DNA of 32,000 bases, taken from Ktedonobacterales bacterium. Lineage in GTDB: Bacteria > Chloroflexota > Ktedonobacteria > Ktedonobacterales > JADMIN01. Position 1 is the first letter of the stretch. Each line of letters starts with the position of its first letter. Below the pieces are notes generated by a model, which worked only from the letters and a program-made list of their open reading frames with translations, was not told where the DNA came from and ran no database searches. The position numbers were made by a program, and so were the translations under genes. The DNA is taken from assembly GCA_030167145.1 (NCBI GenBank), contig CP126532.1, positions 2,640,001 to 2,672,000 of the forward strand, read 5' to 3'. Below, piece after piece: positions 13,345 through 32,000 of this stretch.

Positions 13345-16300
13345 GGTTGACGCTTTCCCCGGCGGCAACAGCGCACGCCAGTCCGCTACTGCCTGCCGCG
13401 AGAGCGGGTCGGATTCCAGCGACCATTGCAGATCGTCCGCTTGCGTCGCATGCACATCCGGCGCGCCCTCGTGGTAGAGCAGCGCGTACACATGCGCGTC
13501 CGCTTTTGCCGCGCTCTCGGTCTGCTCCAGCCACGCCGCTTTATCCTGCGGATCGCCCGACGCGCTGACCTCCAGGAAGATCGGCTTGCCGGGATGTCGC
13601 GCCTCCACGGCGCTTAGCACGGCGCTGGGATCGGGCCAGGGGGTATTGGGGTAGCGGATCATGCTCTGCAACACCACATCAATCGTCGTGTCCGGCGGCG
13701 CATATTGTTGATCGTGCGCCGGGTCGGCGGGCGACCAGACCCATGCGACATTGGTCGCGCCCGCCGCCGCGAAGACCGCCTGCACATGCTCCCAGGCGCG
13801 CGGCACATCCTGCGGAATGCCGCCATTAGCCACAGCGGAAGAGAGCGCCCAGTTGCGGTCCACGTGCAGCAGAATTGTCAGGTAGATCGGCTTGCCATAC
13901 ACCGCAATTTCGCGCGCCCAGCGTTGCAGCGCGGTATCGTCCACGCCGTTGGCGATGGCAGGCAGCCCAGCGGAGAGCGGCGGCTCTCCATCCGCGCCGA
14001 ACTCGCCGAATTGCAGCGTAACCCACGGGCGCTGCTGATGTGCGGCAAGCTGGTTGGCCCAGGCGATGTCGAACGAATCGGTAAGGTCTTGCGTGCGCCC
14101 GATGATTGTGAACGGCAGGCAAAGCTGCTGCGCGAGTTGCGTGGGGCGCGTCTTCAGCCACTCGACCCGCACCGATAGCCCCAGGTACGGCGCGCCGTGG
14201 TACGCGGCGGGCACGAAGCGCGCGGGTGGCTGCGCATCCACCAGCCGCGACGTGATGAAAGCGCCCGTACACAGCACCAGCAGCCCACTCAGCAGCGCTC
14301 CTCGCGCCCTCGTCGCGGCCCATCCCCATGCCGAGTACACTCCCTGCGTCGCGACGCGCTGCGGCGCACGCGCCACATGAATCGCGACGCGGTGCGCAGC
14401 CGCCCACGCCTGCATGCGCGCCCACACGCTCTGGCGCTGCCGCGCTTCGCCGTAGCGCAGGTCGCGCACGCCCAGCCACAAGACGCTGCCCAACAGGCCG
14501 ATGTCGTAGATCACCCACAACACACTAACAATCACCGAATCGCGGTGCGCGTGTGGCACGACGAACGCCACAACGATGCCGGCAAAGCAGGCGACAACAG
14601 CCACCAGATAGACGACGAGATGGCTCCATGCGCTCGTCGTGCGCCGCTGCTTGGATGTGACCATGAAGCCCGTGCGCCCACCAGTGATGACCGTCCACAA
14701 CGCCTGAATCAACACCGGAAAGCTGCCGAAGCCGATGATGATGCCGCGAATGCCGGTCTCGCGGCGACTGGCGTACCAGAACGCCCCCTGCGCGGCGATC
14801 CAGTATGGCACAAAGTGCCACAGGAAGAGCGCCAGCGTCGCACCGCGCACCGCCGGAATGCCGGTAAACAGGAAGGCCAGCGGCGCTACCAGGTAGATCA
14901 GGTCGCGCACGCCGCAGAGATAGTGCGTGCAGGCCAGCGCATATTGCAGCCGCTGCCCCACATGCAGGCCGCCGCGCCGGGGCAGCCAGATCGCGCGCCA
15001 GTGTGTGCGCAGCACACCCAGCGTGCCAATTGCCCAGCGGCGCTGCTGCTTCAGGTATGCGGGCAGGTCCATCGGCCCCAGGCCCGTCGCCAGCACATCC
15101 GTCAGGAAGACACTGCGCCAGATGGGATGCAGCGCGATAGATGCGGCGAAATCTTCCGTCACCGAATCCTGTGGCAGCCCGCCAATCTCATCCAGCGCCG
15201 TCGCCCGCAACACCACATTCGTGCCGCAGATGAACGCGGCATTGAGCGCCGCCTTGCCGGGGCAGAGTATGCGATAGAACAACGCCTGCTGATCGTTGGC
15301 CCAATGCGCTACCGGCTGCTCCAGGTTAGTATAGTATTGCCCCGTCTGCACCCAGCCGATGGTGGGGTCCGCGAACGGCGGCACGGTCTTCAGCAGAAAG
15401 TCTGGCCGGGCGAGCTGGTCGGCGTCGAAGATCGCCACCAGCGCATCGCCGGTCGCGCCCACCTGCTGGCGCGCGTGCTCGATATTGCCCGCCTTCGCGC
15501 CGCCACCTGCCGTGCGAGTGACACATTGCACGCCCATCCGCTCCGCCAGGCTTTCCACTTCGCGCCAGCAGGGCGCGTTGGCGACGCGCCCATCATTGCA
15601 GAGCACGATGGCGACCTGCCCCTGCGGATACGCGCGCAGATAGCGGCGGCGCGCTTCCAGCGCCGCCTTGAGGGTCGGCGCGAGCACCCCAGCGCCTTCA
15701 TTCACCGTGGGAATGAAGATGAAGACCGGGCGGCGCGCGGGATCTTCGGAGGGGACGATGCGCGGCCTGGACCACGGCCAGACGGTATATTGCAGCCCCA
15801 GCGTATGCACCGCGCCAAACGCCTCGGCGGCGAGCAGCGGCACGGCAATCCACCAGGCTGCCCAGTTCGAGACTTCCAGCCGCCACGTCAGATAGTCAAT
15901 CGTCGTCACGCCCACCGTCGCGGCCAGCAGAATCGTCAGCAGCTTCCGGCTATCCGCTCCACCACGCAGCGCGATGCTCACCCCCAGCGCCAGCGTCGCC
16001 AGCATCACCCAGCCACCTGGTAGCAGCAGCACGATACAGGCAAGCGCGACGACGATCAACGCTGCTGAGATCAACGTCATCGCCTGCTCGCGGCGCTGCG
16101 GAAGCCCGCTCCGCTCATGCCGCTCATGCTGCTCATGCTGCTCGCGTTCCGCCTCCGCCTCCGTGACCACCTCGAAGTCGGCTCCGCTCTCCGGCATTGC
16201 CGTGCATGGCGCCGTCACCACGAAGTCACGCGCATTGGTTGCGCTCGCCTCTGGCGCGCCGTCCACATGCGCGCCGTTGGAGTGCTTGCCCTTGGCATGC

Positions 16301-16614
16301 TTGTTCTTGGCATGCTTGTTCTTGGCATGCGGTTGCGCCGCGTGGACGCCGTCCGCATGTGCGCCGTTGGGGTGTGGCTGCGCCTCCTGGGCGGGCAAGC
16401 GCGCGATAGCGAAGCGCGCGATGGTGAAGGGCGCGATGGTGAAGGGCGCGAGACGCGAGACGACAAACGCATTCTTCAAGCCTCCCGCCGCTGGGTGGCG
16501 CGCCGACGCGGTGGGCGCTGAAGAAATAAGTGATGAAGCAGCGGGCGGCGACCTCTGTGACGATGCCGCTTCTTCGCGCTCCGGTGGGTCAGCAACGGTA
16601 TTTTGATGCGTCAT
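13336..16614 (-). CDS. Processive GT2 glycan synthase (BcsA/PgaC-like, QxxRW) fused to a repeat-rich N-terminus and a C-terminal extracytoplasmic glycoside-hydrolase-like domain
   Basis: GT2 motifs VFIFIPTVNE, LCNDG, AKAGNIEHA, AIFDADQ, VTEDFAASIALH, LKQQRRWAIGT, flanked by multiple TM helices. The C-terminal ~300 aa (…RWAREIAVYGKPIYLTILLHVDRNW…NVAWVWSP…KPIFLEVSASG) reads like a GH26/GH5-type barrel. Start uncertain: 16614 (MTHQNT) or 16653. Confidence 0.85.
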   Translation of the reverse strand: MTHQNTVADPPEREEAASSQRSPPAASSLISSAPTASARHPAAGGLKNAFVVSRLAPFTIAPFTIARFAIARLPAQEAQPHPNGAHADGVHAAQPHAKNKHAKNKHAKGKHSNGAHVDGAPEASATNARDFVVTAPCTAMPESGADFEVVTEAEAEREQHEQHERHERSGLPQRREQAMTLISAALIVVALACIVLLLPGGWVMLATLALGVSIALRGGADSRKLLTILLAATVGVTTIDYLTWRLEVSNWAAWWIAVPLLAAEAFGAVHTLGLQYTVWPWSRPRIVPSEDPARRPVFIFIPTVNEGAGVLAPTLKAALEARRRYLRAYPQGQVAIVLCNDGRVANAPCWREVESLAERMGVQCVTRTAGGGAKAGNIEHARQQVGATGDALVAIFDADQLARPDFLLKTVPPFADPTIGWVQTGQYYTNLEQPVAHWANDQQALFYRILCPGKAALNAAFICGTNVVLRATALDEIGGLPQDSVTEDFAASIALHPIWRSVFLTDVLATGLGPMDLPAYLKQQRRWAIGTLGVLRTHWRAIWLPRRGGLHVGQRLQYALACTHYLCGVRDLIYLVAPLAFLFTGIPAVRGATLALFLWHFVPYWIAAQGAFWYASRRETGIRGIIIGFGSFPVLIQALWTVITGGRTGFMVTSKQRRTTSAWSHLVVYLVAVVACFAGIVVAFVVPHAHRDSVIVSVLWVIYDIGLLGSVLWLGVRDLRYGEARQRQSVWARMQAWAAAHRVAIHVARAPQRVATQGVYSAWGWAATRARGALLSGLLVLCTGAFITSRLVDAQPPARFVPAAYHGAPYLGLSVRVEWLKTRPTQLAQQLCLPFTIIGRTQDLTDSFDIAWANQLAAHQQRPWVTLQFGEFGADGEPPLSAGLPAIANGVDDTALQRWAREIAVYGKPIYLTILLHVDRNWALSSAVANGGIPQDVPRAWEHVQAVFAAAGATNVAWVWSPADPAHDQQYAPPDTTIDVVLQSMIRYPNTPWPDPSAVLSAVEARHPGKPIFLEVSASGDPQDKAAWLEQTESAAKADAHVYALLYHEGAPDVHATQADDLQWSLESDPLSRQAVADWRALLPPGKASTCG
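16112..16460. repeat. Cluster of short in-frame tandem repeats in the 5' part of the synthase gene (9-bp x3-4, 6-bp, 15-bp x2.7, 15-bp x4)
   Basis: ccgctcatg/ccgctcatg/ctgctcatg (EQHEQHERHE). cttggcatgcttgtt x2.7 at 16291-16330 (HAKNKHAKNKHAKGKH). gcgcgatggtgaagg-type units at 16401-16460 (FTIAPFTIARFAIARL). Confidence 0.85.
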
Positions 16615-16759
16615 GCGGATGCTAAGCCCCTGCCTACGCCAGAACGTAGGCAATCTGCGCGCGTCTTGCGCGCGTGTTCGTCTCTATGCTTCTGTGAGTG
16701 TGTACGTGCATCTTTGCGCCCCACACTGTATAGGCCCTGCGCCTCCGCACCCAAGTTCG

Positions 16760-16789
16760 TGGGTATCACCACGAACCTACTTCGGTATC
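16760..16789 (-). promoter_or_regulatory. Bipartite GATACC element, copy A (minus-sense GATACCGAAGTA-N9-TGATACCCA)
   Basis: Plus-strand tgggtatcaccacgaacctacttcggtatc. It matches the box halves and N9 spacing of 22941-22970 exactly. On the gene strand it is followed by TTGGGT-N16-TATACA (16754-16727). It lies 146-175 nt upstream of the synthase ATG at 16614. Confidence 0.6.
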
Positions 16790-16875: not shown

Positions 16876-18690
16876 TCAGCCACCCTGGCCGCTGCCGCCG
16901 TGTGGTGTGGCAGTGGTGGGCTGCGCGGCTGGGGTCGCGGATGCTGGGCGGCTGATTTGCTCGGCAATCGTCGGCTGCGTCAGATCGTTCGCGCCGATGT
17001 GTTGCACTTGATAGATCGCGACCCAGAACAGCTTATTCTGGAATTTCTTGATGAGTGTCGCATGATCGAGGGCATTCAGAATCAGCGTCATATTGAAGTT
17101 TTTGGCATCGGTGAGCAGATCGCTATCCGCCATGATGTAATCCACGTTGTTCCAGTCGTTGTGGAAGATGCCAGTGCCCACCGCCGGGTCCGTCGCCACC
17201 ACCCAGTACATTTCCACATGCGCGAACGGCGCGCCGTTGCCCGCGCCAATGCCGCCGGGCGTGCGCATATCCACATAGTTGTAGTGGTTGGCGATAATCA
17301 TCGCCGAGCGCGGCACATGCGCGCTCATCCACTCCATCGCCTGAATCTGCGGGCCAGTCTCATTCGCCGTCAGATTCTTCGTGTTCATGCGCGCTTCATA
17401 GGGCGCGAGCACCGTCAGGATGCCCACCACCACGAGCAGCAGCGCCGCCTGCAACACACGTGCGCGCGGAACCGACGCCAGCCGCCGCGCCCACGGCGGC
17501 GCGCTCAACCACTGGCCAGCGCGCTGCGGCATTCGGGTGTGTTCTGGCAGCCAGATGATGATAAACCTGAGCGCATAGTAGAGGAAGATGGCCACGTTTA
17601 GGGCCAGGAATGGCAGCAACGGGATGATATAGTAGGCGAAGGTGACGCCGCCACGCGCCAGGAACAGCAGATAGATCAGCGGCAAGAGCGGCACGATACG
17701 TATCCGTGGCTGCCAGCGACTCACCAGCAGATTGCCAGCGATAGCCACCATTCCGCCGAGCAGCAGCAATCCATCGTCTTTGCGCCAAGCGTCCCATTGC
17801 TCCAGAAATGAGCCGCCGTTGCTGCCACGTCCCGCCTGTTGCAGGTAGGTGGTAATCATGCTCACATGCGGATTCGTTCCACCCAGCAACGTTCCCGTCG
17901 GAAAGAGTTCGTTTTTCAGCAACGCCAGCAACACATAGGATGAGACCAGCGCCAGGGCGAGATAGCAGAACAGCACTACCGCATAGCGGCGCTGAAACTT
18001 GGAGGACACGAGCCAAACGCCGTAGATGAACACCGGCAACAGAATCACCGCTGTCTCTTTCGAGAGAAACGCCAGCCCGAACGCGAGCGCGCTGCCCAGG
18101 ATGTAGCGCATGCGGCTCTCGCTTGCCACCAGCAGGTACAGCGCCAGCATGACCCAGAAGGTCGCGATATTATCGAGCAATACCTCGCGCTGGTAGTTGA
18201 TGCTCAACGGCGAGAGCGAGAAGAGCGCCATCGCCAGCAGCGCAATCCAAATATTGCCCGTGAGTTTGCGCGCGGTGAGGTACACGAAGAGCGACGCGAG
18301 GGCGTCGAGAAATAGAATGAAGACACGCCCGCTGTTGATAGCCGTGCCAAACGTAAAGAAACCACCGGTGAGCTGGCACCAGACGCCGATCATCGCCCAG
18401 CCCAGCGGCGGATGACCATAGCTGTAGGTGTAGGGGAAGACATTGCCGTGCATCACCGACCACGCCGCCGCCACATACACGCCCTCATCGCCCTGATAGC
18501 GTGGGAAGTTGAAGAGATTCCACGCGTGCGCCACCACACCCACGCCCAGCAGCGCGCCCACCAGCAGCGCCTCGAAGATCCAGGCGCGGGCGAGCGCAGC
18601 GCGGCGGGCGCGCATCAGCAGCGCGTGTGCGCCCATGCGCGGTGGATGTGTGGCAGTTGGGGGCAGCGCGAGAGCATCACGGGCGTTCAT
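16876..18690 (-). CDS. GT-C fold membrane glycosyltransferase #2 (GT39/PMT_2-like)
   Basis: Start taken at ATG 18690 (MNARDAL...) with GAGGGAAG RBS and an ATGA overlap with the stop of the upstream GT2. First-loop motif FPRYQGDEGVYVAAAW. More than 10 TM helices plus a C-terminal soluble domain. Confidence 0.85.
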   Translation of the reverse strand: MNARDALALPPTATHPPRMGAHALLMRARRAALARAWIFEALLVGALLGVGVVAHAWNLFNFPRYQGDEGVYVAAAWSVMHGNVFPYTYSYGHPPLGWAMIGVWCQLTGGFFTFGTAINSGRVFILFLDALASLFVYLTARKLTGNIWIALLAMALFSLSPLSINYQREVLLDNIATFWVMLALYLLVASESRMRYILGSALAFGLAFLSKETAVILLPVFIYGVWLVSSKFQRRYAVVLFCYLALALVSSYVLLALLKNELFPTGTLLGGTNPHVSMITTYLQQAGRGSNGGSFLEQWDAWRKDDGLLLLGGMVAIAGNLLVSRWQPRIRIVPLLPLIYLLFLARGGVTFAYYIIPLLPFLALNVAIFLYYALRFIIIWLPEHTRMPQRAGQWLSAPPWARRLASVPRARVLQAALLLVVVGILTVLAPYEARMNTKNLTANETGPQIQAMEWMSAHVPRSAMIIANHYNYVDMRTPGGIGAGNGAPFAHVEMYWVVATDPAVGTGIFHNDWNNVDYIMADSDLLTDAKNFNMTLILNALDHATLIKKFQNKLFWVAIYQVQHIGANDLTQPTIAEQISRPASATPAAQPTTATPHGGSGQGG

Positions 18691-19967
18691 GCGACTTCCC
18701 TCACCTTTCTGTGCGCGCCCACATGCGCGGTTTTCTCCCAGTTCGTCTGCTTCCGCGCCTGGCGCAGAATCGCCCGCACGGCGGAGACCGCGAGCAACCA
18801 TTGATAAGGGAAGAAGCCCAGCACGCTCAGCACGAACACACGCGGCGAGTAGCCACGATGCTGGGCGCGGATGAATTCGGCGAGCGCCACCACATTGAGG
18901 ACCAACTGCGCGCCAAAGACGTAGAGTGGTAGGAAGGTGAACAAGGCGAGCCACACCGGCAATTTCACGAACACCATCATCGCCAGCGAGACAGGTAACA
19001 TCAGCGCGAAGATCCCCTGGATGAATGGAATTGCCAGCAGATACGCCGCCAGCAGCCGCTGCGACAGCGTGGGCAGGCGCAGCCAATCGCCTTTCAGCAA
19101 CACCTGCAAGAATCCCTGATGCCAGCGCGTGCGTTGCTTGACCAGCGCCCGCACGTTATCAGGCGTCTCTTCGCGCGTGACGTGGTCATCGTCGCAGAGG
19201 ATGCGGATGCGCGCGCCAGCGGCGCTCAGCCGGATGCCAATTTCAGCGTCTTCGGTCAGGCACTGTTCGTCCCAGCCGCCAGCGGCTAGCAAGGTCGCGC
19301 GTTTGACGAAAACCGTATTGCCGCCGAGGGGCACAATGCCCGACCAGCCAAAATAGTGCAGGGTGGACTTGAACCAGAAATAGTATTCGAGCACATTGAG
19401 CGCGCTGAACCAGTAGGTGTCGTAGTTCATCAGCCGCACGCCCCCCTGCACCACCTCCACATCCTCCTGGGCCAGTGTCGTGTTGATGATCTGAAAGATG
19501 TCTTCATGCGGCTCGTCTTCGGCGTCAAAGATCGTCACCACATCCATCGCCGCCGCCTGCAATCCCTTGTTCAACCCATGCGGCTTGTTGATCGGCGTAT
19601 CGCTGAAGACGATCAACCGCACATGCTCCTTGCCTGGCTCTGCCAGCTTCGCATGCACCGTGTTGATCGTGCCGATGTCGCCCGCCTCGCAGATCACCAG
19701 CACCTGCAGCAGGTCGCGCGGATAGTTCGCCCGGCAGATTTTCTCGATGGTTGCCCCGATCACGGCTTCCTCGTGGCGGGCGGGCAACAGCACCGTGAAC
19801 GAAATCTTCGGCTCGGCAAACGCCACCGGCGGCTGATTGAACAGCGCGCGGCGTGGCTCCCCCCAGATGAAGAGCTGCATCCGCAGGTTGAACAGGCTCT
19901 GGAGCGCCATCAGGCAGATGATGAGCAGATAGATCGCCAGGGCGATGCTCGATAGGCTCGTGAGCAC
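18687..19967 (-). CDS. Processive GT2 synthase (NodC/IcaA/PgaC/HAS-size, QxxRW)
   Basis: 426 aa, GTG start. N-terminal TM helix, FTVLLPARHEE, VICEAGD, VTIFDAEDEP, CLTEDAEIGIRLS, VKQRTRWHQGFLQV, C-terminal TM helices. Confidence 0.9.
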   Translation of the reverse strand: MLTSLSSIALAIYLLIICLMALQSLFNLRMQLFIWGEPRRALFNQPPVAFAEPKISFTVLLPARHEEAVIGATIEKICRANYPRDLLQVLVICEAGDIGTINTVHAKLAEPGKEHVRLIVFSDTPINKPHGLNKGLQAAAMDVVTIFDAEDEPHEDIFQIINTTLAQEDVEVVQGGVRLMNYDTYWFSALNVLEYYFWFKSTLHYFGWSGIVPLGGNTVFVKRATLLAAGGWDEQCLTEDAEIGIRLSAAGARIRILCDDDHVTREETPDNVRALVKQRTRWHQGFLQVLLKGDWLRLPTLSQRLLAAYLLAIPFIQGIFALMLPVSLAMMVFVKLPVWLALFTFLPLYVFGAQLVLNVVALAEFIRAQHRGYSPRVFVLSVLGFFPYQWLLAVSAVRAILRQARKQTNWEKTAHVGAHRKVREVA

Positions 19968-20128
19968 GGTATCCTCATCTCAATAGGTGGCTTCATGGCT
20001 TATGGGTCGCGAATATGGGTGGCTAGTGACCAGATAGGAGTGACAGAGCGTGTATTGAAGGCATTGCAGTGTGTCTGTAGGCGTGCCTAGAAATACAAGG
20101 TTGCCGGGTCAATGCCGAAGGCGCTGCT

Positions 20129-21199
20129 TCAGCCGCTGCGCACATTCACCGAATCTATGAAGATTGGACCGGTATAGGGCAATGCGCCTTGCGCGCTGAC
20201 GAACATGATGCCTAGCTCGCGTATCGGTGTGGGCAGGGTAGGCGGAAGATGAAAGACAATCGCCGTCCACTGGCCGGGGGTTAAGGCAGGAAAGGGGCTA
20301 TTGTGCCAGAGCCAAGCGCCGTCGAGCGTATAGAGCGCCGCGACCACCTCCTGTGCGCCGGTTGGAATGTAGATATGAGCGGTGATTGTGCTGCCAGGTT
20401 TGACCTCCGCCGGATTGGCAATGTAGACAAAGGCCTGGCGTGCCTGGGTGATCTGCGTGGCCTGCACCTCCAGCGCGCCCTGGCCCGCGAAGACGCGCAG
20501 ATTGTTACTGACGGCATTCGCCGCCGCGCCACGAGCCATCCAGCCGTCGGCGTCCTGCTCAAAGTTATAGGTGGCCGTGTCGCGTGCGGCGGTCTGCCCT
20601 GGTGGGCGCAGTCCTGATATCGGAATCGTCACCGCACCGACGAACAGCGCGAAATTCAGCAGGCTGACCAGCAACGCCGCAAGGCTGAACGCCAGCACCA
20701 GCGCATAGCGCCAGCCAAAGGCGTGGCGCACAATTCGCATGCTGCCACCAACACCGGCATCAGCATTGGGTATGCTCACGGGCGGTTTCGCCTCAGCGTC
20801 CTCTGCTGCCAGCGTGCCAGCGCCAGAAGGCTCAGCCAAGGCAGCAGCACCGGGCGGCTCAGCCAGGGCATCGTCGCCATTGCCGCCATCGCTGGCGGAT
20901 GTCGTCTCGTCCGTGGTCTCGCCCGTGGTCTCGTCTTCCGGCTCTCCTGGCTCTTCCTCATCCTCATCTATCTCCACGGACGGCAGCAGCACCGCCGAGT
21001 GCGGTGGTTCAGGAAACCGGTCGAACACTGGCGCGGCGCGCTCTGGCGTCGCGGGCGTAGGGGCATCGTCATCCGGGGCATCAGTGGCGGCCTCCGTGGC
21101 GGCCTCTGTTGGAGAGTTCGTCGTGGTCTCCGCTGGCTGCCCCTTCCGCAGGGCGATGAAGGGAAAGTTCTTATGGTGCGTGTTGTGTGTGCTGGTCAT
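20129..21199 (-). CDS. Single-pass membrane protein: acidic low-complexity N-terminus + extracytoplasmic beta-sandwich/CBM-like domain
   Basis: GGAAGGAG RBS. D/E/T/P-rich first ~150 aa, then TM helix YALVLAFSLAALLVSLLNFALFVGAV. The C-terminal ~150 aa starts YNFEQDADGWMARG..., a CBM4/9- or CBM11-like opening. Confidence 0.65.
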   Translation of the reverse strand: MTSTHNTHHKNFPFIALRKGQPAETTTNSPTEAATEAATDAPDDDAPTPATPERAAPVFDRFPEPPHSAVLLPSVEIDEDEEEPGEPEDETTGETTDETTSASDGGNGDDALAEPPGAAALAEPSGAGTLAAEDAEAKPPVSIPNADAGVGGSMRIVRHAFGWRYALVLAFSLAALLVSLLNFALFVGAVTIPISGLRPPGQTAARDTATYNFEQDADGWMARGAAANAVSNNLRVFAGQGALEVQATQITQARQAFVYIANPAEVKPGSTITAHIYIPTGAQEVVAALYTLDGAWLWHNSPFPALTPGQWTAIVFHLPPTLPTPIRELGIMFVSAQGALPYTGPIFIDSVNVRSG

Positions 21200-21246
21200 A
21201 GCAGGTGACTCCTTCCGCGATCAGCGAGGGAGCGATACGGTCGCCT

Positions 21247-22848
21247 TCACTGTGGCAGAGGAAATGTTCGGATGATGCCAGATTGGCCAGACGCCAGAAT
21301 CTGCGCCGTTGGCGCAAAGAGGAAGTAGCGTCCCGCGCTGTTGCGATGCAGTTCCACGCACACGACACCATACGGCGGCACCGTGACGCTTGCCGCATGC
21401 CAGGCGCTAAACGGCCCGGACGGCGTGATGCTGACCGCCGCGTCAGCGGCGGTGCTATTCACGAAGAACAACGTCGCGATGCTACGGTCGGCGTTGGTGG
21501 CGGCATACAGGCTCACTGGGCCGGAGGTGCCGCCCACCGGGATGACCTCCGGCTGCATGTGCTGGTACATCTGCACCACATGCAAGAGCGGCGTCTCATC
21601 GCCCGCGCCCGTCAACATCCCGTAGGGTTGATCTATGCCGCGCAGCGCGAAGAAATCCACGTATTCCGTCTGTTCTTCGAGCAACGTGCCCAGGGTATCC
21701 GCCCACCACAGCGCCGTCGCCATCGGGCTGGTGGTGGTGCCGCCCAGCGGACTGGTGTTGACCTCGGTGATCGCGAGGGGCAGCGCCGTCCCCATGATGC
21801 GCTGGATCTCCTGGCGCAGCGGCGGCAGCGAGTAACGCCATTCGCTCGCCGACGCGAAAAGCAGGCCCGTCGAGCTGATCGCCTGATTGAACGGATAGCG
21901 ATGGAACGAAACAGCGTCGAGCAGGTGGACATGATGCGCCTGTTGATAGGTGGCGATGCCGCTCAGAAATCCGGTCAGCCACGGTGCGCCCGTCGCGTCG
22001 GCGGGCAGCGTGAGACTGTCATACTGGCTGATCTCCGGGCCGAAAATCTGGATCGTTGGGTCAGCCGCTTTCATCGCCGTGGCAAAGGCGATGAAGTCAC
22101 GCACGTAGTCCGCCACGGTGTAGCTGGGTCCGATGAGATCCGGCTCGTTGCCAATCACCCAATACCGCACCGGCACATCGGGCACATTCGGCGTGTTCAG
22201 CCGGTTGGGGTCGCTGGGGATATTGCAGAAGCGCACCAGCGCCGCCGCTTGTGCGGGCGAGCCGTTTTTGAGCCGCACCTGCATCAGTGGCGTGGTGTGG
22301 GTCTGCTGCGCCAGACGCAAGTACGCGGCAACCTGCTCGAACGACGCGGTATGGTCCTCGCCCCAATTGCCACCGGGGAACCGCAGCATCGTGAAGCCTG
22401 CGCTGGTGATGCCCGTGACGGTTTTCGCATCATACGGCATGAAGCCATAGGCCCCGTCGAGCGCCTGCGACCCCTCGACCGGAAACACATTGACCCCGAA
22501 GACATAGGGGCTGCGCGGAAAAGCCGTCCGCAGGTCCACCGTGACCGGCTGCTGGTCCTCGATACGGACCGTCAGCGCGTCATCAGCGCCGATGCGCGCC
22601 GACAGCGCCCGCGTGCCCACGACGATTGCCACCACCGCCAGCGTCACCGCCACGAGCCGCCACGCATACCACCGCCACGACCGCCGTTGACGCCGATAGA
22701 CGCTGCTGCCGGTATAGCGTTTCTCGCGTTTCTCGCGACGGGGCGTATCTCTGGCGAGTGCTTCGGCCTGCGATGCTTCGGCCTGGGACGGCTCAGAAGC
22801 GCCTAAGGTATCAGGGGTATCGGGGGTATCGGAGGTATCAGTGCGCAT
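21247..22848 (-). CDS. Membrane-anchored clan GH-A glycoside hydrolase
   Basis: Start taken at ATG 22848 (MRTDTSDTPDTPDT...). TM anchor WRLVAVTLAVVAIVVG. MLRFPGGNWGEDH, YWVIGNEPDL (acid/base), LAITEVNTSP (nucleophile). Confidence 0.8.
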   Translation of the reverse strand: MRTDTSDTPDTPDTLGASEPSQAEASQAEALARDTPRREKREKRYTGSSVYRRQRRSWRWYAWRLVAVTLAVVAIVVGTRALSARIGADDALTVRIEDQQPVTVDLRTAFPRSPYVFGVNVFPVEGSQALDGAYGFMPYDAKTVTGITSAGFTMLRFPGGNWGEDHTASFEQVAAYLRLAQQTHTTPLMQVRLKNGSPAQAAALVRFCNIPSDPNRLNTPNVPDVPVRYWVIGNEPDLIGPSYTVADYVRDFIAFATAMKAADPTIQIFGPEISQYDSLTLPADATGAPWLTGFLSGIATYQQAHHVHLLDAVSFHRYPFNQAISSTGLLFASASEWRYSLPPLRQEIQRIMGTALPLAITEVNTSPLGGTTTSPMATALWWADTLGTLLEEQTEYVDFFALRGIDQPYGMLTGAGDETPLLHVVQMYQHMQPEVIPVGGTSGPVSLYAATNADRSIATLFFVNSTAADAAVSITPSGPFSAWHAASVTVPPYGVVCVELHRNSAGRYFLFAPTAQILASGQSGIIRTFPLPQ

Positions 22849-22940
22849 GGGTGTTCCATTCGTAGATGGCGGGCAGTGTCGGCGGCTTGCGTCCTTACTC
22901 ATGAATGGTATGCACTTCCGTTTCCAGCCCTCACACCCTC

Positions 22941-22970
22941 TGGGTATCATCCCGCATGTACTTCGGTATC
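22941..22970 (-). promoter_or_regulatory. Bipartite GATACC element, copy B (minus-sense GATACCGAAGTA-N9-TGATACCCA)
   Basis: Plus-strand tgggtatcatcccgcatgtacttcggtatc. It lies in the divergent intergenic region, 93-122 nt upstream of the GH ATG at 22848. Confidence 0.6.
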
Positions 22971-24735: not shown

Positions 24736-24766
24736 TGATACCCAAGGCACATCATCGTGATACCCT
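24736..24766 (+). promoter_or_regulatory. GATACCC direct repeat, copy C (TGATACCCA-N13-TGATACCCT; 22-bp phasing)
   Basis: tgatacccaaggcacatcatcgtgataccct read directly. It sits immediately upstream of the -35-like hexamer of the GT2/radical SAM operon. Confidence 0.6.
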
Positions 24767-24773
24767 CCGTGCC

Positions 24774-24801
24774 TTGTGAGTGACGCGCGCATCTTCATAA
24801 T
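24774..24801 (+). promoter_or_regulatory. Putative sigma-70-like promoter (TTGTGA-N16-CATAAT) of the small ORF/GT2/radical SAM operon
   Basis: -35-like TTGTGA at 24774-24779, 16-nt spacer, -10-like CATAAT at 24796-24801. It is about 90 nt upstream of the ATG at 24890. Confidence 0.4.
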
Positions 24802-24889: not shown

Positions 24890-25210
24890 ATGAGCACGTC
24901 GTCAACTGGAGGGCCGCCTGCAAGCGCCGCCACCCAGCCCGTCCCCGAACGGGACATCGCCTTCCAACTGCTGCTGTTGCAGCAGAAGCTCGGCGCGCTG
25001 GACCGGCTCTACAACGAAGAAGTTGGGGCGCTGCATCACGACCTGACACAGCTCAAGGCTGAGTATGTGCGCCAGGTGCAGGCACAGCGAGAAGGAGCGC
25101 CCTCCAAGCCATCGCGCCAGGAGAAGAAAACGGCGAAAGGCTCGCGCCGCAAGTCTTCGCCAGGCGAGACGGGTAAGCCGTCGCCGCGCAACGCGGGAGC
25201 AGCCTCCTGA
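24890..25210 (+). CDS. Small coiled-coil protein with basic, Ser/Pro/Lys-rich tail (unknown function)
   Basis: GGGGAGAGA RBS. 106 aa. Heptad-like DIAFQLLLLQQKLGALDRLYNEEVGALHHDLTQLKAEYVRQVQAQ. Its stop lies 13 nt before the next gene. Confidence 0.5.
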   Translation: MSTSSTGGPPASAATQPVPERDIAFQLLLLQQKLGALDRLYNEEVGALHHDLTQLKAEYVRQVQAQREGAPSKPSRQEKKTAKGSRRKSSPGETGKPSPRNAGAAS

Positions 25211-25223
25211 GAGGAATGCAGAC

Positions 25224-26570
25224 ATGGCAAAGGAAAGCGGTTTCGCGCAAGGTACGCCAATTGCGCCGGGGATCTCGTGCAGCGCGGGCGTCATGGCGTA
25301 CAACGAGGCAGGCAACATCGCCAGCGCCATCGCCAGTATCCTCAACCAACCACTGGAAACCGGCTGCATCGCCGAGGTGATCGTCGTCGCCAGCGGCTGC
25401 ACCGACGACACCGTGCCCATCGTGCGCGGCATCTGCCAGCGCGACCCACGGGTGCGGCTGATCGTGCAGGAGCGCCGCGAGGGCAAGGCGTCGGCCATCA
25501 ACCTGTTCCTCAGCGCCGCCACCGCGCCAATCCTGCTGATGGTCAGTGCCGATGTCATCATCAAGGATGGCTCGCTCGACGCGCTGCTGCGCCCCTTCGG
25601 CGATCCGCGCATCGGCATGGTGGGCGCGCATCCCATCCCGGTCAACGACGAGCAGCGGTTCCTTGGCCACGCGGTACACCTGCTATGGAGCCTGCACGAC
25701 CGCATCGCCCGCCAGTCACCCAAGCTGGGCGAGGTGGTCGCCTTCCGCAATGTCGTGCCGAGCATCCCGCCCGATACACCGGTGGATGAGATCTCGATCC
25801 AGGCGCTGGTCGTGCAGTTGGGCTATGAGTTGCTCTACGAGCCGCGCGCCATTGTCTACAATCGCGGCCCCGAAACCATCGGCGACTTCCTGCGCCAGCG
25901 CCGCCGCATCTACAGCGGCCACCTGCGCATCCAGCGCCAGCAACAGTATTCCGCCGCGACGATGAGCGTGCCGCGCATCACCCGCGCCCTACTGGCCGAG
26001 CATCCCTTCGCCACGCCGCGCGCCGCCTGCTGGACCTGCGGCACAGTTGGCCTGGAAGCGCTGGCGCGTGCGCTGGGCAGCTACGACCAGATGCGCCGCC
26101 GTCAACATCAGGTGTGGCAGATGGCCGGCACCACCAAAGCGCGAATCGCCGAAGCCGCCACCGCGCACAGCCTCGAAAGCGTGCTGGTCTTCCATATCGC
26201 GGGCTTCCACCAGCACGAGCTAGAGCTGGGCAGCCGCAACGCGCGGCGTCTACTTGAGGCCGTGACCGAGCGGCTGCGCCAGGAGTTGCGCGCCTACAAC
26301 GGCAATGTCGCCGCCGAGCGCAATGGCACGATCATCGCCCAACTTCCGGTAGATCGCGCCGAGGCGGAACGGCTGGCGCAGCAGGTAATCCCGGCGGTGG
26401 CACGCGCGCCGCTGCGGATCGCGGGCAGCCGCGAGACCGCGCCGGTGCGGTTGGCCTGCGGCATCATCGAATTCGCGCGTGAAGGCGGAGGTAGTAGTGC
26501 GTTCGCCACCTCCGTGCCGGAGTCGGCATGGAGCGCTCAAGAGCAGAGTCCAGCGGTGGAGGCAGTTTAG
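25224..26570 (+). CDS. Soluble GT2 glycosyltransferase fused to a C-terminal degenerate GGDEF-like (nucleotidyl-cyclase fold) domain
   Basis: GAGAGGA RBS. GT2 N-terminus GVMAYNEAGNIASAIASILNQ, VVASGCTDDT, LLMVSADV, FLRQRRRIYSGH. C-terminal SVLVFHIAGFHQHELELGSRNARRLLEAVTERLRQELRAYNGNVAAERNGTIIAQLPVDRAEAERLAQQV follows the GGDEF-domain spacing pattern but lacks GG(D/E)EF. Confidence 0.8.
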   Translation: MAKESGFAQGTPIAPGISCSAGVMAYNEAGNIASAIASILNQPLETGCIAEVIVVASGCTDDTVPIVRGICQRDPRVRLIVQERREGKASAINLFLSAATAPILLMVSADVIIKDGSLDALLRPFGDPRIGMVGAHPIPVNDEQRFLGHAVHLLWSLHDRIARQSPKLGEVVAFRNVVPSIPPDTPVDEISIQALVVQLGYELLYEPRAIVYNRGPETIGDFLRQRRRIYSGHLRIQRQQQYSAATMSVPRITRALLAEHPFATPRAACWTCGTVGLEALARALGSYDQMRRRQHQVWQMAGTTKARIAEAATAHSLESVLVFHIAGFHQHELELGSRNARRLLEAVTERLRQELRAYNGNVAAERNGTIIAQLPVDRAEAERLAQQVIPAVARAPLRIAGSRETAPVRLACGIIEFAREGGGSSAFATSVPESAWSAQEQSPAVEAV

Positions 26571-26584
26571 GAGGCAGTGTAACT

Positions 26585-27742
26585 ATGGGTATGCGAAAAG
26601 TGCTTACACGGATTCCTGTGCTTCAGGCGTCCTATCTCACCGGGCATCCGATGGGGTTGCCCGTCAACATCACCATCAGCACGAGCTACCGCTGTAACTC
26701 GCGCTGCAAGACCTGCAACGTCTGGCTCTTGCCTAATGACGACTTCACCCTGGAAGAGTGGGATCGCACCTTCCAATCGCTGGGCAAAGCGCCGTACTGG
26801 TTCACCTTCAGTGGCGGCGAGCCGACCCTGCGCAAAGACCTGCCGGAGATGGTGGAGAGCGCCTATCGTCACTGCAAGCCAGGCATCATCAACATCCCCA
26901 CCAACGGCATTCAGGATAAGATCATCCCTGGGCGCGTCGAGCGCGTGCTGCAAGCCTGCCCAGAGAGCGAGGTCATCATCAACGTCTCGCTAGATGGCGT
27001 GGGCCTGAAGCATGATACCGTGCGCGGCGTGCGCGGCAACTTCGAGCGGGCGATGCGCACCTACGCCGCGCTCAAAGACCTGAAGACGAAGTACCAGAAC
27101 TTCACCCTGGGCGTCCACTCGGTCATTTCCAACTTCACTGTAGATAGCTTCCCCGAACTCTGCGAATTCGTGCAGACGGAACTGAAGCCCGACCAGTACA
27201 TCACCGAGATTGCCGAGGAGCGCGTCGAGTTGGATACCGTCGGCCTGGGCATCACGCCGCCGGTCGAGAAATACAGCGTCGCCATCAATACACTCGTAGA
27301 GAGTCTCCACGACCAGAAGCTGACCGGCATCTCCGCTGTGACACAGGCGTTCCGGTTGCAATACTACGAGATCGTCAAGAAGACGCTCCGCGAGCATCGC
27401 CAGGTGATTCCGTGCATGGCGGGCGTCGCCTCGGCGCAGATCGCCCCCAACGGCGACGTGTGGACCTGCTGCATCCGCGCGCAATCTATGGGCAACCTGC
27501 GCGAGTATGGCTACGACTTTGGCAAGGTCTGGCGCACGGCGCGGGCCGACGAGCTACGCCACAGCATCAAGGCGGGCGAATGCTATTGCCCGCTGGCGAA
27601 CGCTTCGTACACCAACATGCTGATGCACCCGCCCACGCTGGCGAAAGTCTCCGCGACGGTGCTGCGCGAGCGACGACAAGCCGCCAAGGCAGGCCAGGGC
27701 GCGCCGCAGCCCGCGCTGCCCATCCCCGCCGCCGAGGCTTAG
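26585..27742 (+). CDS. Radical SAM enzyme with C-terminal SPASM/twitch-like Cys cluster
   Basis: AGGAGG RBS overlapping the upstream stop. CxxxCxxC = STSYRCNSRCKTCNV. SAM-binding FTFSGGEPTL. C-terminal cysteines PCMAG...WTCCIRAQ...GECYCPLAN. Confidence 0.9.
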   Translation: MGMRKVLTRIPVLQASYLTGHPMGLPVNITISTSYRCNSRCKTCNVWLLPNDDFTLEEWDRTFQSLGKAPYWFTFSGGEPTLRKDLPEMVESAYRHCKPGIINIPTNGIQDKIIPGRVERVLQACPESEVIINVSLDGVGLKHDTVRGVRGNFERAMRTYAALKDLKTKYQNFTLGVHSVISNFTVDSFPELCEFVQTELKPDQYITEIAEERVELDTVGLGITPPVEKYSVAINTLVESLHDQKLTGISAVTQAFRLQYYEIVKKTLREHRQVIPCMAGVASAQIAPNGDVWTCCIRAQSMGNLREYGYDFGKVWRTARADELRHSIKAGECYCPLANASYTNMLMHPPTLAKVSATVLRERRQAAKAGQGAPQPALPIPAAEA

Positions 27743-29247: not shown

Positions 29248-30693
29248 TCACGTGCGGCGCTGCCAGCTCGCGAAGCGCAGCGCCATTCCCACCGCCATCA
29301 CCGCGAGTCCCGCGCCAATGCCGACCCACGTCCACAGATACGTGGCTGGCGGCGCATCGCTTGGCGCTGGCGGCGCTGGCGATGCCGAGGCGATAGGCGA
29401 GGGATTCGCTGGCGTAGCGCGTGAGACGGGCGCAGGCGCCGTGGCCGCAACGCTGGGCGGCGCGGCAGGCATGGTGCGCGGCGTGTCGGCAGGCGCTTGC
29501 GCTTGGAGTTGCGGCGCATCGCTGGGCGTAGAGGTAGAAGATGCGGGCGCATCGGCGGGCGGCGCGCTCATGCTCATCTTCAGTGTCGAACGCAGGTTCA
29601 GGCCCATCGCGCTCAGGCAGAGCAGGCCAGAGCAGGTCATCAGCAGCGCCGTCCACGGGTGCGAGAAGAGGAACATCGCCGCCACCCCCGGCGCGCTCAC
29701 CCCGAAGAGTCCGGAAAATATCAGCAGCCCGATCACCTCATTGCTGCCGATCTGCCCTGGCGGCGTGGGCAGGATGTACCCCAGGTTATAGAGCGTGTAA
29801 CCGAAGAGCGCCACCGGGAAGACCACCCCCACCCCCACCGCCTGGAACGCCAGGAAGGCGAAGAGCGCATCCAGCGCCACCGCCACCGCCGTATACCCCG
29901 CCGCGACGATCAGCCGTCGTGGATTCGCCAGCAGCGCCAGCAGCACCTCGATGAAGCGCATCATGAACGGCTCAACCACATTCCGCATGCGCGCGGGCAG
30001 ACGATCCAGCGGGATACGCAGCAATGCGAACGCCCGCTCGCGCCGCCACGCCGCCAGCCCCAGAAAGGTGAAGCCGATACACAGCACCACCAGCACCGAC
30101 AGCAGCAAGAACCACAGCGGTCCACTCAGCCGGAACGGCAAGAACGGCAGGATAATCACCAGCACCACCGCTGGCAGCAGATCCATCATCTTATCCGCAG
30201 CCACCGTGGGCAGCGAATCGCTCATCGGGATCTCGTCCAGCCGCTTGAGCAGCAGCCCCTTGACGATCTCGCCGCCCCGCAGCGGCAACAGCCAGTTCAC
30301 GAACGTAGCGACCTGATAGATCAGAATCACCTGCACCACGCCCACCGGATGCGGCTTCAAGAAGACACGCCAGCGCAGCGCCCGCACCACATACGCCGCC
30401 AGGAAGACCACGCCGCAGAGCAGCGCCAGCGGAATGTTGAGATGTTCGAGATGCACGAACGCGCCCCGCAGGCTCACCACCCGGCTGAACGTAGCGACCA
30501 GCACCACCGCCGCGAACGCGCCAATGATAATGCGGATCACCTGGCCGTTCAGTCGCCGCGACCGCTTCTTTCTCGCCGTGATAACCCCATCCGGCGCGGA
30601 AAGCGCCTGTAGGGGCGCACGGCGGGCGCACGTCCGGGCGCACGCGCCATCTGCAGGCGTGTATGCGGTCTGCCCACCCATCTCCTGATCCAT
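29248..30693 (-). CDS. Flippase-like polytopic membrane protein (MprF/LPG_synthase_TM, UPF0104 family) with long Pro/Ala-rich C-terminal extension and terminal TM helix
   Basis: ATG 30693 preceded by GGAGGG. YVVRALRWRVFLKP...YQVATFVNWLLPLRGGEIVKGLLLKR signature. About 8 TM helices. C-terminal ~130 aa are low complexity (PADAPASSTSTPSDAPQLQAQAPADTP...) ending in WTWVGIGAGLAVMAVGMALRFASWQRRT. Confidence 0.75.
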   Translation of the reverse strand: MDQEMGGQTAYTPADGACARTCARRAPLQALSAPDGVITARKKRSRRLNGQVIRIIIGAFAAVVLVATFSRVVSLRGAFVHLEHLNIPLALLCGVVFLAAYVVRALRWRVFLKPHPVGVVQVILIYQVATFVNWLLPLRGGEIVKGLLLKRLDEIPMSDSLPTVAADKMMDLLPAVVLVIILPFLPFRLSGPLWFLLLSVLVVLCIGFTFLGLAAWRRERAFALLRIPLDRLPARMRNVVEPFMMRFIEVLLALLANPRRLIVAAGYTAVAVALDALFAFLAFQAVGVGVVFPVALFGYTLYNLGYILPTPPGQIGSNEVIGLLIFSGLFGVSAPGVAAMFLFSHPWTALLMTCSGLLCLSAMGLNLRSTLKMSMSAPPADAPASSTSTPSDAPQLQAQAPADTPRTMPAAPPSVAATAPAPVSRATPANPSPIASASPAPPAPSDAPPATYLWTWVGIGAGLAVMAVGMALRFASWQRRT

Positions 30694-30727
30694 GTGCTGG
30701 TATCCCTCCTGGTATCCTTCCACGCTG

Positions 30728-31297
30728 CTATGCCGCCGCGATGCCGAGCGCGCCATGCGCGCCGGGTGCGATGATGCCGCCCTCCTGAGCATGCGCCTGT
30801 TCGTGGCAGACGCCGCAGAGGCTGATAAAGTGCTCCACGCGATACGACGGCAGCAGCGGCGGCTGCCGCCACAAATGCGCCACCACCGTGCGGTCGCGTG
30901 CGCCGCAGCGCTGACACGTGTAGGCGTCGCGTGCTAGCGCTGCCTTGCGTGCGGCGCGCGTGCGGTGCGTATGGAAGGCATCCAGCGCCACATGGAACGC
31001 GAAGCCCAGCAGGGTCAGCCGCGCCCAGCGCCAGCGCAACCCCAGCAGGCCCAGCGCCGCCAGGGCTTCAGGACTATGCAGGCAGCGGATGCCGTCGTGC
31101 TGCGGTGGCATCGCCTGCGCGAAGAAGCGCACCGCGCCACGTGGGCTAAGCTGGCGCTGCTTTACGCAGTACCAGGCGTAGTGGTCAACATCTATCAGCA
31201 GGCTCGCCGCCCACGGTGCCAGCGCCGCGCGCCCCATGCGGGGGGCCAGCAGCGTCGCCGTCGCGCTCGAAAGCAGCAGATGATCGCGGATTCTCAC
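30728..31297 (-). CDS. Membrane-associated DUF457/YdjM-like N-terminus fused to an HNH-type zinc-finger nuclease motif
   Basis: GTG 31297 preceded by GAAGGAGG at 7-nt spacing. LLIDVDHYAWY. C-terminal CQRCGARD...VAHL...HFISLCGVCHEQAH (CxxC...H...CxxCH...H). Confidence 0.6.
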   Translation of the reverse strand: MRIRDHLLLSSATATLLAPRMGRAALAPWAASLLIDVDHYAWYCVKQRQLSPRGAVRFFAQAMPPQHDGIRCLHSPEALAALGLLGLRWRWARLTLLGFAFHVALDAFHTHRTRAARKAALARDAYTCQRCGARDRTVVAHLWRQPPLLPSYRVEHFISLCGVCHEQAHAQEGGIIAPGAHGALGIAAA

Positions 31298-31309
31298 CCC
31301 GGCGCCTCC

Positions 31310-31360
31310 TTCGCGCACTCAACTTCGCGCACTCAACTTCGCGCACTCAACTTCGCGCGA
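31310..31360. repeat. 3.6 copies of a 14-bp tandem repeat (ttcgcgcactcaac)
   Basis: Copies at 31310-31323, 31324-31337 and 31338-31351, then a partial ttcgcgcga. The array spans the epimerase stop codon (31347-31349) and abuts the RBS of the HNH gene. Confidence 0.9.
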
Positions 31361-32000
31361 GCGCCTGTGGCGCTTCGCTCACTCGCGCGGGCGGCAGATA
31401 CCCCTCCGCGCGATACCAGTCCGCCGCGCGCCCGATGCCCACAGCCAGCGGCGTATCGGCGCTGAAGTCGAGCCGCTCGCGCGCTTTGGCCACGCTATAC
31501 ACACGGCTATGCGTCAGAAAATCGAGCCGGCTGCTGGTCAGCGGCGCGGACTGGCGCAGCCGCGCGGGCAGCGCATCGCAGGCCGTCGCCACGGCGCGTG
31601 CGGCGGGCAGCGGAATGTGGCCGCGCGGTGGCGGCACATCCAGCGCACCAGCGATAGTCGCGGCCAGCGTGTCAATGGTCACCGGCTCACGTCCCGCGAT
31701 GTGAAAGCACTCGCCCACGGCGCGCGGATCGCTGCCGCACCGCACGAACGCCTCGATCATGTCGTCCACATAGATTGGGTGGAACCACACCGTCTCGCGC
31801 CCAATCGGGCGGAACAGCCGCCGCTGGATCGCCTTGAAGAAGCCCAGCAGGTGCAGATCCCCCGGCCCGTAGACCAGCCCCGGCCGTACAATCACCGCCG
31901 GAAAGCCGTTCCAGGCCTCCTCGCGCACCAGCACTTCCGCGTCGCGCTTGGTCGCCTCGTAGGCGTTGGTCGGCGCGTAGGGCGCGACTTCCGCCGCTGG
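31347..32000 (-). CDS. NAD-dependent epimerase/dehydratase (extended SDR), C-terminal part; 5' end lies outside the window
   Basis: The frame is open to the window edge. Translating 31935-32000 by hand gives ...PTNAYEATKRDAE (YxxxK catalytic motif), then VIVRPGLVYGPGD and FHIAG. Confidence 0.85.
   Translation of the reverse strand, partial: PAAEVAPYAPTNAYEATKRDAEVLVREEAWNGFPAVIVRPGLVYGPGDLHLLGFFKAIQRRLFRPIGRETVWFHPIYVDDMIEAFVRCGSDPRAVGECFHIAGREPVTIDTLAATIAGALDVPPPRGHIPLPAARAVATACDALPARLRQSAPLTSSRLDFLTHSRVYSVAKARERLDFSADTPLAVGIGRAADWYRAEGYLPPARVSEAPQALARS

Follow-up and report, generated by a model that had tools for sequence, protein, structure and literature searches.

A conserved pair of direct GATAC repeats upstream of glycan operons in uncultured Ktedonobacterales: a candidate operator of a NarL-family response regulator

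Introduction

We examined a 32,000-nucleotide stretch of DNA (hereafter the window) from the 5.07-Mb contig of an uncultured Ktedonobacterales bacterium (locus tags OJF49_; JGI 3300045419), which carries an island of glycan genes. A bipartite element upstream of the gene for a GH44-like hydrolase recurs upstream of other operons of the island, and the locus thereby raises the question of what the element does, and what reads it. A preliminary description, made from the letters alone, had proposed an activator's operator upstream of the −35 region, shared by a local regulon, with a neighboring NarL-family regulator as the candidate reader. Our analysis finds the element at orthologous promoters of related genomes, at a fixed distance from −10-like hexamers and in company with the gene of that regulator, which is probably the protein that reads it.

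Three copies of the element in the window

The window contains three copies, sites A, B and C. On the minus strand, site A reads GATACCGAAGTA-catgcggga-TGATACCCA from 22970 to 22941 and site B reads GATACCGAAGTA-ggttcgtgg-TGATACCCA from 16789 to 16760; site C, on the plus strand, reads TGATACCCA-N13-TGATACCCT from 24736 to 24766. Re-reading the letters at these coordinates confirmed what the preliminary description had reported of all three copies, including a spacing of 22 bp between the GATACC cores, start to start, and a placement that is always intergenic and always oriented toward the downstream gene. Site A lies between the operon of the GH44-like hydrolase, which is its downstream operon, and a divergent PMT_2 gene. 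Site B lies 5′ of an operon for a cellulose-synthase-like GT2 protein and a PMT_2 protein, and site C 5′ of an operon for a protein of 106 amino acids (aa), a GT2 protein and a radical-SAM enzyme. The 3′ end of site A is 92 nt from the ATG at 22848, and that of site B is 145 nt from the ATG at 16614 and 280 nt from the gene caller's start at 16479. The preliminary description named no gene for site C, whose 3′ end is 123 nt from the ATG at 24890, which opens the 106-aa gene.

We then considered whether these copies could be a chance similarity, or the remnant of a duplication or mobile element, without function. Two observations would suit such an origin, namely that the window has no more than three copies and that a 9-bp coding repeat contains GATACC as well. 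The shuffle statistics, however, point the other way. Exact TGATACCCA occurs three times against 0.09 expected, close to the earlier hand estimate of about 0.1, and three copies were reached in none of 100 dinucleotide-preserving shuffles. Allowing up to one mismatch, we found GATAC-N16-TGATAC three times, each time as a perfect copy, where 0.16 matches would be expected. The GATACC hexamer itself occurs 24 times against 7.2 expected, four of the 24 being the coding repeat. When the window was scored with a weight matrix built from related sites in relatives, sites A to C reached 25.4–33.0 bits, compared to 7.5 bits for the next best position and 13.3 bits for the maximum of 30 shuffles.

Two other groups of GATACC hexamers lie in the window. 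At 22807-22839 (minus strand), four tandem copies with a 9-bp period fall within the first 15 codons of the GH44-like gene (M-R-T-D-T-S-D-T-P-D-T-P-D-T-L). We considered this run as a special signal and rejected it; it is not conserved in orthologues and its codon usage is ordinary (GAT 110, GAC 114). At 30699-30716 (minus strand), GGATACCaggaggGATACC has two GATACC 12 bp apart and overlaps the ribosome-binding region of the LPG_synthase_TM gene (ATG 30693); its architecture is unlike that of the element, and it is probably a coincidence.

Conservation in relatives and extent of the regulon

Orthologous loci (given here by L numbers) were fetched via homologues of the window's GH44 protein, to which the GH44 proteins of four compared loci are 53–62% identical. 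In an alignment of four GH44 upstream regions, the sole long conserved block is GATACsGAAGT-N10-ATGATACy. Altogether we located 24 sites in 10 Ktedonobacterales genomes (the source genome and nine relatives), every one of them intergenic and pointing toward its downstream gene. The consensus is rGATACsGAAGy-N10-yTGATACy, and its conserved core consists of GATAC-N17-GATAC and the T preceding the second box. The spacing is kept in 23 of the 24 sites; the sole variant seen, with N16 and boxes 21 bp apart, stands 5′ of a 106-aa-like gene (L113 5384-5410). Phylogenetic footprinting, which the preliminary description had suggested as a check, thus finds the element kept at orthologous promoters in nine other genomes. 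It also trims the 9-mer given there; GATAC and TGATAC are invariant across relatives, and the trailing CCA is not conserved.

Five gene classes lie downstream of the sites: GH44, synthase, 106-aa gene, DUF362 and epimerase. Sites at GH44 operons are found in eight genomes, the motif being kept in eight GH44 loci overall, with site A orthologues in L003, L005, L007, L009, L011, L012 and L099. Sites at the synthase operon are found in the window and in the synthase-orthologue locus L109, where the counterpart of site B stands at position 9789 and scores 21.8 bits. Sites at the 106-aa / GT2 / radical-SAM operon are found in the window, L112 (4449), L114 (5550) and L113 (5384, with the 21-bp spacing), and sites at DUF362-ferredoxin and NAD-epimerase operons in L003, L005, L007, L009, L011, L012 and L113. 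In loci outside the training set of the weight matrix, sites score 21.8–33.2 bits, compared to a maximum of 16.4 bits in control loci (1.30 Mb).

The relatives' DUF362 sites predicted a fourth site in the source genome, site D, which was then located in the ~8.7-kb extension past the window's right edge. Within the region covered by our census of the source genome (the window and ~8.7 kb beyond its right edge), the four site-bearing operons lie within about 17 kb.

The comparative data bear directly on a chance origin or a functionless remnant. The orthologous positions are kept across genomes with ~50–60% protein identity, while the flanking DNA is scrambled. We also scanned metagenome contigs (241 million records, the source contig not among them) for exact GATACCGAAGT-N10-TGATACC and found 21 loci. 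The only relatives among them are L098 and L099, and the other loci are unrelated low-GC sequences or 11-nt tandem repeats; the strict pattern is nearly absent from these records outside this gene context. Consequently, the comparative data effectively refute the idea of chance similarity or a functionless remnant.

One further site stands apart. A contig labeled 'Proteobacteria bacterium' (L015) has a perfect GATAC-N16-TGATAC at 4617-4643 with a DUF362-type tail (TGATACCgtttgccgct), preceding a short-chain dehydrogenase / E1 dehydrogenase cluster. Its two-component system is a different one, in which a HisKA_3 kinase is paired with a regulator that shares only 37% identity with that of the window. 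The contig may be mis-binned, or it may be a distant branch of the regulon.

Promoter geometry

We found that the element keeps a fixed distance to a downstream hexamer. All 21 sites compared have an nAnnnT hexamer past box 2, beginning at +32 in 13 of them and at +33 in the other eight, compared to 0–3 sites at other offsets; the gap from the end of box 2 to this −10-like hexamer, typically TAsACT, CATAAT or GACACT, is therefore 31–32 nt. A −35-like hexamer lies 7–9 nt past box 2 in sites A, B, C and most GH44-type sites, and in most GH44-type sites it is TTGAG-like and begins 7 nt past the box. At site C, a promoter scan tool independently called a promoter at 24774-24801, whose −10 begins 32 nt past box 2. 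The boxes would thus lie at about −50/−44 and −71/−66 relative to the start predicted in silico, i.e. upstream of the transcript. For sites A, B and C, transcription would accordingly begin near 22898 (minus strand), 16718 (minus strand) and 24808 (plus strand). The fixed −10 distance places the boxes in the classic position of an activator site, and the location upstream of −35 claimed in the preliminary description agrees, in silico, with the −10 distance of all 21 sites. Past the −10, the leaders are unconserved and 50–500 nt long.

It could be argued that the boxes themselves are the core-promoter elements (−35 and −10, or an extended −10) of an alternative sigma factor. The 16-nt gap between the GATACC hexamers resembles a −35/−10 spacer, and TGATAC is superficially like an extended −10 (TGn). 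Yet −35 and −10 elements are read by different domains of sigma, so that identical direct repeats would be unexpected, and the letters that follow TAC vary, among them the one that would be the crucial last position of a −10. Moreover, a separate −10-like hexamer follows 31–32 nt downstream in 21 of 21 sites, TTGAG stands at the −35 position in most GH44-type sites, and no sigma factor gene is linked. We regard this explanation as very unlikely.

Other signals lie near the GH44 promoters. For the divergent PMT_2 gene, the promoter scan calls CTGCCA-16-TATCAT at 23044-23071 (plus strand). The corresponding promoter of relatives (L003 ~9815-9824, L005 ~9807-9816) has a conserved, perfect TATAAT, which reads GATTATAGCA on the GH44 strand and lies ~60 nt upstream of box 1. 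A CTACGAAyrG block, 5–10 nt before the GH44 start codon (22852-22866, minus strand), is kept in three genomes (L003 and L005, both ~9982-9996, besides the window) and is unlike a Shine-Dalgarno sequence.

DNA element or RNA element

The element always has the sense orientation and stands 90–280 nt before start codons, and copies B and C could form a hairpin around box 2. It could accordingly be asked whether the element functions once transcribed, as a cis-regulatory leader RNA of some kind (riboswitch-like, an attenuator or the target of an RNA-binding protein). The searches for RNA families and structures argue against this. No Rfam family passes the gathering threshold on the element, and relaxing the search to E up to 10 brings up nothing relevant; the sole sub-threshold overlap is PAGEV, on the opposite strand at 24562-24764, with 18.6 bits against a gathering score of 61.1. 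A search for tRNA and tmRNA genes found none. The single-sequence hairpins around box 2 have stems of 11 bp in B, 8 bp in C and 3 bp in A and are mutually inconsistent, the folding z-scores are −1.85 for B, −0.05 for C and +0.69 for A, and RNAalifold on the 21 aligned sites yields 0 pairs and 0 kcal/mol. With a stem of only 3 bp in A and no consensus structure among the aligned sites, we rejected the hairpin. The −10-like hexamer at its fixed distance also implies that the boxes precede the likely start of transcription, and the part of the leader that would be transcribed is neither conserved nor constant in length. A leader-RNA function is therefore highly improbable, and the evidence favors an element that would act at the DNA level, as a promoter-proximal operator.

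Candidate regulator and its co-occurrence with the motif

We next compared the gene neighborhoods of the sites. The candidate regulator is a NarL/FixJ-family response regulator encoded in the window; its gene is followed by that of a histidine kinase and that of a 91-aa zinc-ribbon protein (Table 1). The best match of the regulator in the PDB is NarL (1a04), and it scores 134 bits with the NCBIfam NarL model, compared to an equivalog cutoff of 250; by these comparisons it is a member of the NarL family and not a NarL orthologue. Between four orthologues with an identity of otherwise 52–63%, the helix-turn-helix region hardly varies, a parallel to the invariance of the boxes, and the receiver has a conserved Asp (D87 in the alignment). 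The kinase has no HisKA_3 domain, unlike the usual partners of NarL-type regulators. Given its GAF domain and the lack of a clear membrane segment, it probably responds to an intracellular signal.

The three-gene module adjoins motif-bearing operons in the window, L003, L005/L098, L007/L010, L009, L011 and L012, and L014 has the regulator and kinase with a site after them; counted by regulator and kinase, this adjacency extends to eight genomes. In the GH44 orthologous loci, the trio was found within a few kb every time. Zinc-ribbon orthologues are encoded at L003 16140-16445, L005 15817-16092 and L007 18661-18936. On one other contig, the zinc-ribbon gene is part of a glycan cluster, beside radical SAM and epimerase genes and with no regulator nearby.

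To compare this association with its background, we scanned 185,579 species genomes with an alignment of the regulator. The scan returned six true orthologue loci (48–54% identity; Ktedonobacterales or 'Chloroflexia') and 73 loci with generic NarL-family regulators (identity 40% or less). One or two perfect GATAC-N17-GATAC sites are present in five of the six orthologue loci. In the 73 generic loci (1.32 Mb), there are three such matches compared to ~2.5 expected by chance, of which the one in L015 looks genuine. With the weight matrix, nothing scored 18 bits or more in the 1.30 Mb around 72 unrelated NarL-family regulators. The motif thus travels with the regulator/kinase/zinc-ribbon module, as the preliminary choice of this regulator would predict; that the regulator binds the boxes is a proposal from linkage and co-occurrence.

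Two sites have boxes in inverted arrangement. Locus L013 has a perfect 21-bp palindrome, GGTGATACC-ttt-GGTATCACC, at 8968-8988, ~0.8 kb upstream of the regulator orthologue, and at 9778-9816 in L109, 5′ of the synthase orthologue, four GATAC boxes alternate in orientation (GATAC-N5-GTATC). These inverted pairs lend some support to a dimeric helix-turn-helix reader. We also considered direct autoregulation and rejected it; there is no site 5′ of the window's regulator gene, and only L013 has its palindromic GATAC site 5′ of the regulator region.

Proposed mechanism and its alternatives

We consider it probable, from the sequence comparisons above, that the element is an operator of two direct GATAC half-sites placed before glycan-operon promoters, and that the regulator encoded at 7875-8612 reads it as an activator. 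The conservation, the geometry, the predicted site D and the linkage to the module all support this reading, which is in essence the one first proposed for the locus. The identity of the binding protein, its stoichiometry, the sign of regulation and the signal sensed are inferred.

According to the proposed mechanism, the apparently soluble GAF-domain kinase (8599-9993) would phosphorylate the regulator, which would bind double-stranded DNA at the two half-sites, whose 22-bp separation corresponds to about two helical turns. Each box would hold one regulator dimer, fixed there by a single strong GATAC half-site, and the two dimers would be next to each other on the same face of the helix. We propose this arrangement because dimers of BvgA are likewise spaced 22 bp apart, with the proximal one abutting −35 (PMC7250471). 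The operator would lie directly upstream of weak core promoters of the sigma-70 type, with the end of box 2 as little as 7 nt before the −35-like hexamer, and the promoter-proximal dimer, abutting the −35 region, would recruit RNA polymerase and so activate transcription. The targets, genes for envelope or extracellular glycans, would make up a small and conserved regulon, which in the source genome may comprise four operons: GH44-like / binding-domain protein / GT2 / PMT, synthase-like GT2 / PMT_2, 106-aa / GT2 / radical SAM, and DUF362 / epimerase / 189-aa / LPG_synthase_TM.

Several points weigh against this reading. There is one conserved half-site per 22-bp unit, so that the stoichiometry is a guess. 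The window has no site upstream of the regulator gene, the best hit anywhere in the window outside A to C being the 7.5-bit one, and the synthase-orthologue locus L109 has a site and no regulator within 10 kb. In the source genome the regulon may be much larger, even global. The orthologous sites are statistically non-independent, and all the organisms concerned are uncultured metagenome-assembled genomes.

We searched the sites for additional half-sites. GerE-type regulators usually read inverted repeats, and convincing inverted partners were found only in L109 and L013; in most sites the partner is unrecognizable. Candidate partners beside each box were rejected for their inconsistent spacings (GTA at N4 for box 1 of the GH44 type, TTATC at N3 for some box 2). 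A cryptic middle repeat at +11, as in an OmpR-like 11-bp period, was rejected as well, as none of the sites resembles the boxes there.

Alternatively, the operator could be real and another transcription factor could read it, e.g. a global envelope or developmental regulator, the two-component system being a mere member of the regulon or a co-regulator. The link between protein and DNA is not direct, the 10 kb around the site in L109 hold no regulator gene, L003 and L005 have a neighboring gene for an XRE-type helix-turn-helix protein, and the direct-repeat layout is atypical for GerE domains. However, the receiver–GerE regulator and its module are the only DNA-binding candidate that accompanies the motif in all these loci; neither the window nor L007 has the XRE gene. 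The motif and the regulator orthologue occur together in five of six loci, compared to the background rate around the 72 other NarL-family regulators, and a NarL-family regulator is known to use the 22-bp geometry. We give another factor a minor chance.

There is also a small chance that the regulator reads the GATAC boxes in a way new for the NarL family, either as a monomer or dimer on each direct-repeat box, or together with the strictly co-conserved 91-aa zinc-ribbon protein, so that a three-gene sensory module would switch on an envelope-glycan pathway. If so, the module would control the envelope-glycan pathway of filamentous Ktedonobacterales, including the PMT_2, GT2, DUF362-ferredoxin, radical-SAM and LPG_synthase_TM proteins.

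Operons and neighboring features

Genes were annotated using Pfam and stored gene calls, and the features are collected in Table 1. In the operon of site A, the gene order (PMT_2, divergent GH44 / binding-domain protein / GT2 / PMT) is kept in L003, L005, L007, L009-L012 and L098. The synthase–PMT_2 pair of the site B operon is conserved in orthologue loci, two of which were compared by gene table only. The 106-aa / GT2 / radical-SAM trio of the site C operon recurs in L112, L113 and L114. There, a small protein of 76–106 aa precedes the PgaC-like GT2 and the radical SAM/SPASM enzyme (L112 4531-4800, L113 5605-5922, L114 5720-5950); its core is DIAFRLL.LQQ.L.A.DRLYNEE...L..D...LKA.Y.RQ, and no Pfam or NCBIfam model matched it. 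The DUF362 gene of the fourth operon lies, with site D, just past the window edge.

On its left, the island is flanked by unrelated genes for a 1209-aa STAND-type protein (DUF4062, NB-ARC, TPR; 64-3693, minus strand) and a 565-aa pentapeptide-repeat protein (3834-5531, plus strand).

Table 1. Sites, predicted promoters, operons and regulatory genes, in window coordinates
Feature	Position	Strand	Description
Site A	22941..22970	minus	box 1 GATACC 22970-22965, box 2 TGATACC 22949-22943; weight matrix 25.4 bits
Site B	16760..16789	minus	box 1 16789-16784, box 2 TGATACC 16768-16762; weight matrix 32.5 bits
Site C	24737..24764	plus	box 1 24737-24742, box 2 TGATACC 24758-24764; weight matrix 33.0 bits
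Site D	33739-33712 (window-equivalent, past window edge; L110 6955-6982)	minus	33.2 bits; ends 96 nt before DUF362 start codon
Predicted core promoter, GH44 operon	22905..22935	minus	TGTGAG 22935-22930 (7 nt past box 2), TACCAT 22910-22905; read from sequence
Predicted core promoter, synthase operon	16725..16754	minus	TTGGGT 16754-16749, TACAGT 16730-16725
Predicted core promoter, 106-aa / GT2 / radical-SAM operon	24774..24801	plus	TTGTGA-16-CATAAT; promoter scan tool
Operon of site A	16876..22848	minus	GH44-like hydrolase (22848-21247), galactose-binding-like domain protein, GT2, PMT/PMT_2 glycosyltransferase
Divergent PMT_2 gene	23118-24695	plus	gene calls
Operon of site B	11536..16614	minus	cellulose-synthase-like GT2 (1047-1092 aa), then PMT_2
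Operon of site C	24890..27742	plus	106-aa coiled-coil-like protein (24890-25210), PgaC-like GT2, radical SAM/SPASM enzyme
Operon of site D, distal part	29248..32000	minus	epimerase (partial, 31347-32000), 189-aa protein (30728-31297), LPG_synthase_TM (29248-30693)
Candidate cognate regulator	7875..8612	plus	NarL/FixJ-family response regulator, 245 aa: receiver domain and GerE helix-turn-helix (Pfam)
Partner histidine kinase	8599..9993	plus	GAF, weak HisKA match, HATPase_c; no clear transmembrane segment; conserved beside regulator
91-aa zinc-ribbon protein	10173..10448	plus	after kinase in all relatives; 64–69% identity, CPQCG...CVSC invariant

Novelty and meaning

A full-text literature search on response-regulator binding sites turned up no transcription-factor binding motif or regulon for Ktedonobacteria, and one among titles and abstracts no direct-repeat TGATAC operator of a response regulator. 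That the element is an undescribed operator with its regulon in an uncultured lineage, following a known architectural scheme, is well supported; the type of regulation is itself conventional for bacteria. The finding gives a precise 28-bp operator, and the promoter geometry implies −35-like and −10-like elements around TTGAG and TAsACT for these organisms. It also defines a glycan regulon of four to five operons that is proposed to be tied to one two-component system. This regulon joins poorly understood genes (DUF362-ferredoxin, radical SAM/SPASM, the 91-aa zinc ribbon, the 106-aa coiled-coil protein and the LPG_synthase_TM-like protein) to glycosyltransferases, and their grouping as one co-regulated pathway offers a concrete lead to their function. 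The proposed pair of regulator and operator could be approached in vitro without culturing the organism.

Comparison with known systems

Among solved and named proteins, NarL is nearest to the regulator, and the boxes share a TAC with the NarL/NarP operators of Escherichia coli. NarL also acts from sites upstream of −35. The resemblance to the NarL heptamer (TACYYMT) that the preliminary description had seen does not go beyond this TAC; positions 4–7 are variable, the triplets after TAC being CCA, CCT, CAA, CAG, TAG, GAG, GTT, CTT, TTT and ATT with information of ~0.3–0.6 bits, and the conserved GA lies outside the heptamer. We also rejected the 7-2-7 layout of NarL sites, as the repeats here are direct and 22 bp apart and have no inverted partner at that spacing.

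Boxes of the OmpR/PhoB type, such as the Pho box and the actinomycete GTnAC-n6-GTnAC, are repeats every 10–11 bp that are read by winged-helix domains. They share with the element short, helically phased direct repeats upstream of or overlapping −35 and the activation of a dedicated regulon, which here is a proposal. In contrast, the repeats described here recur after 22 bp, with nothing similar midway between them, and are linked to a regulator that carries a GerE helix-turn-helix.

The Chloroflexi-1 RNA motif is a 5′ untranslated region element near glycosyltransferase genes in Chloroflexus. The element resembles it in phylum, in its place 5′ of cell-envelope glycan genes and in its sense orientation, but differs from it in having no Rfam match and no conserved hairpins and in lying upstream of the predicted −10.

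The closest architectural likeness is to the Bordetella promoters Pfha and Pptx. There, BvgA, a NarL/FixJ-family regulator, binds as head-to-head dimers that are 22 bp apart center to center on one helical face, the proximal one abutting −35; each unit is an inverted pair of heptads (TTTCCTA), and three to six units precede weak core promoters (PMC7250471). The element described here has the same unit spacing, a proximal unit abutting −35, weak predicted core promoters and a candidate regulator of the same family. Unlike the BvgA promoters, it has two units, each with a single conserved direct GATAC half-site, inverted pairs (GATAC-N5-GTATC) being found only in L109 and L013, and its sequence specificity is unrelated.

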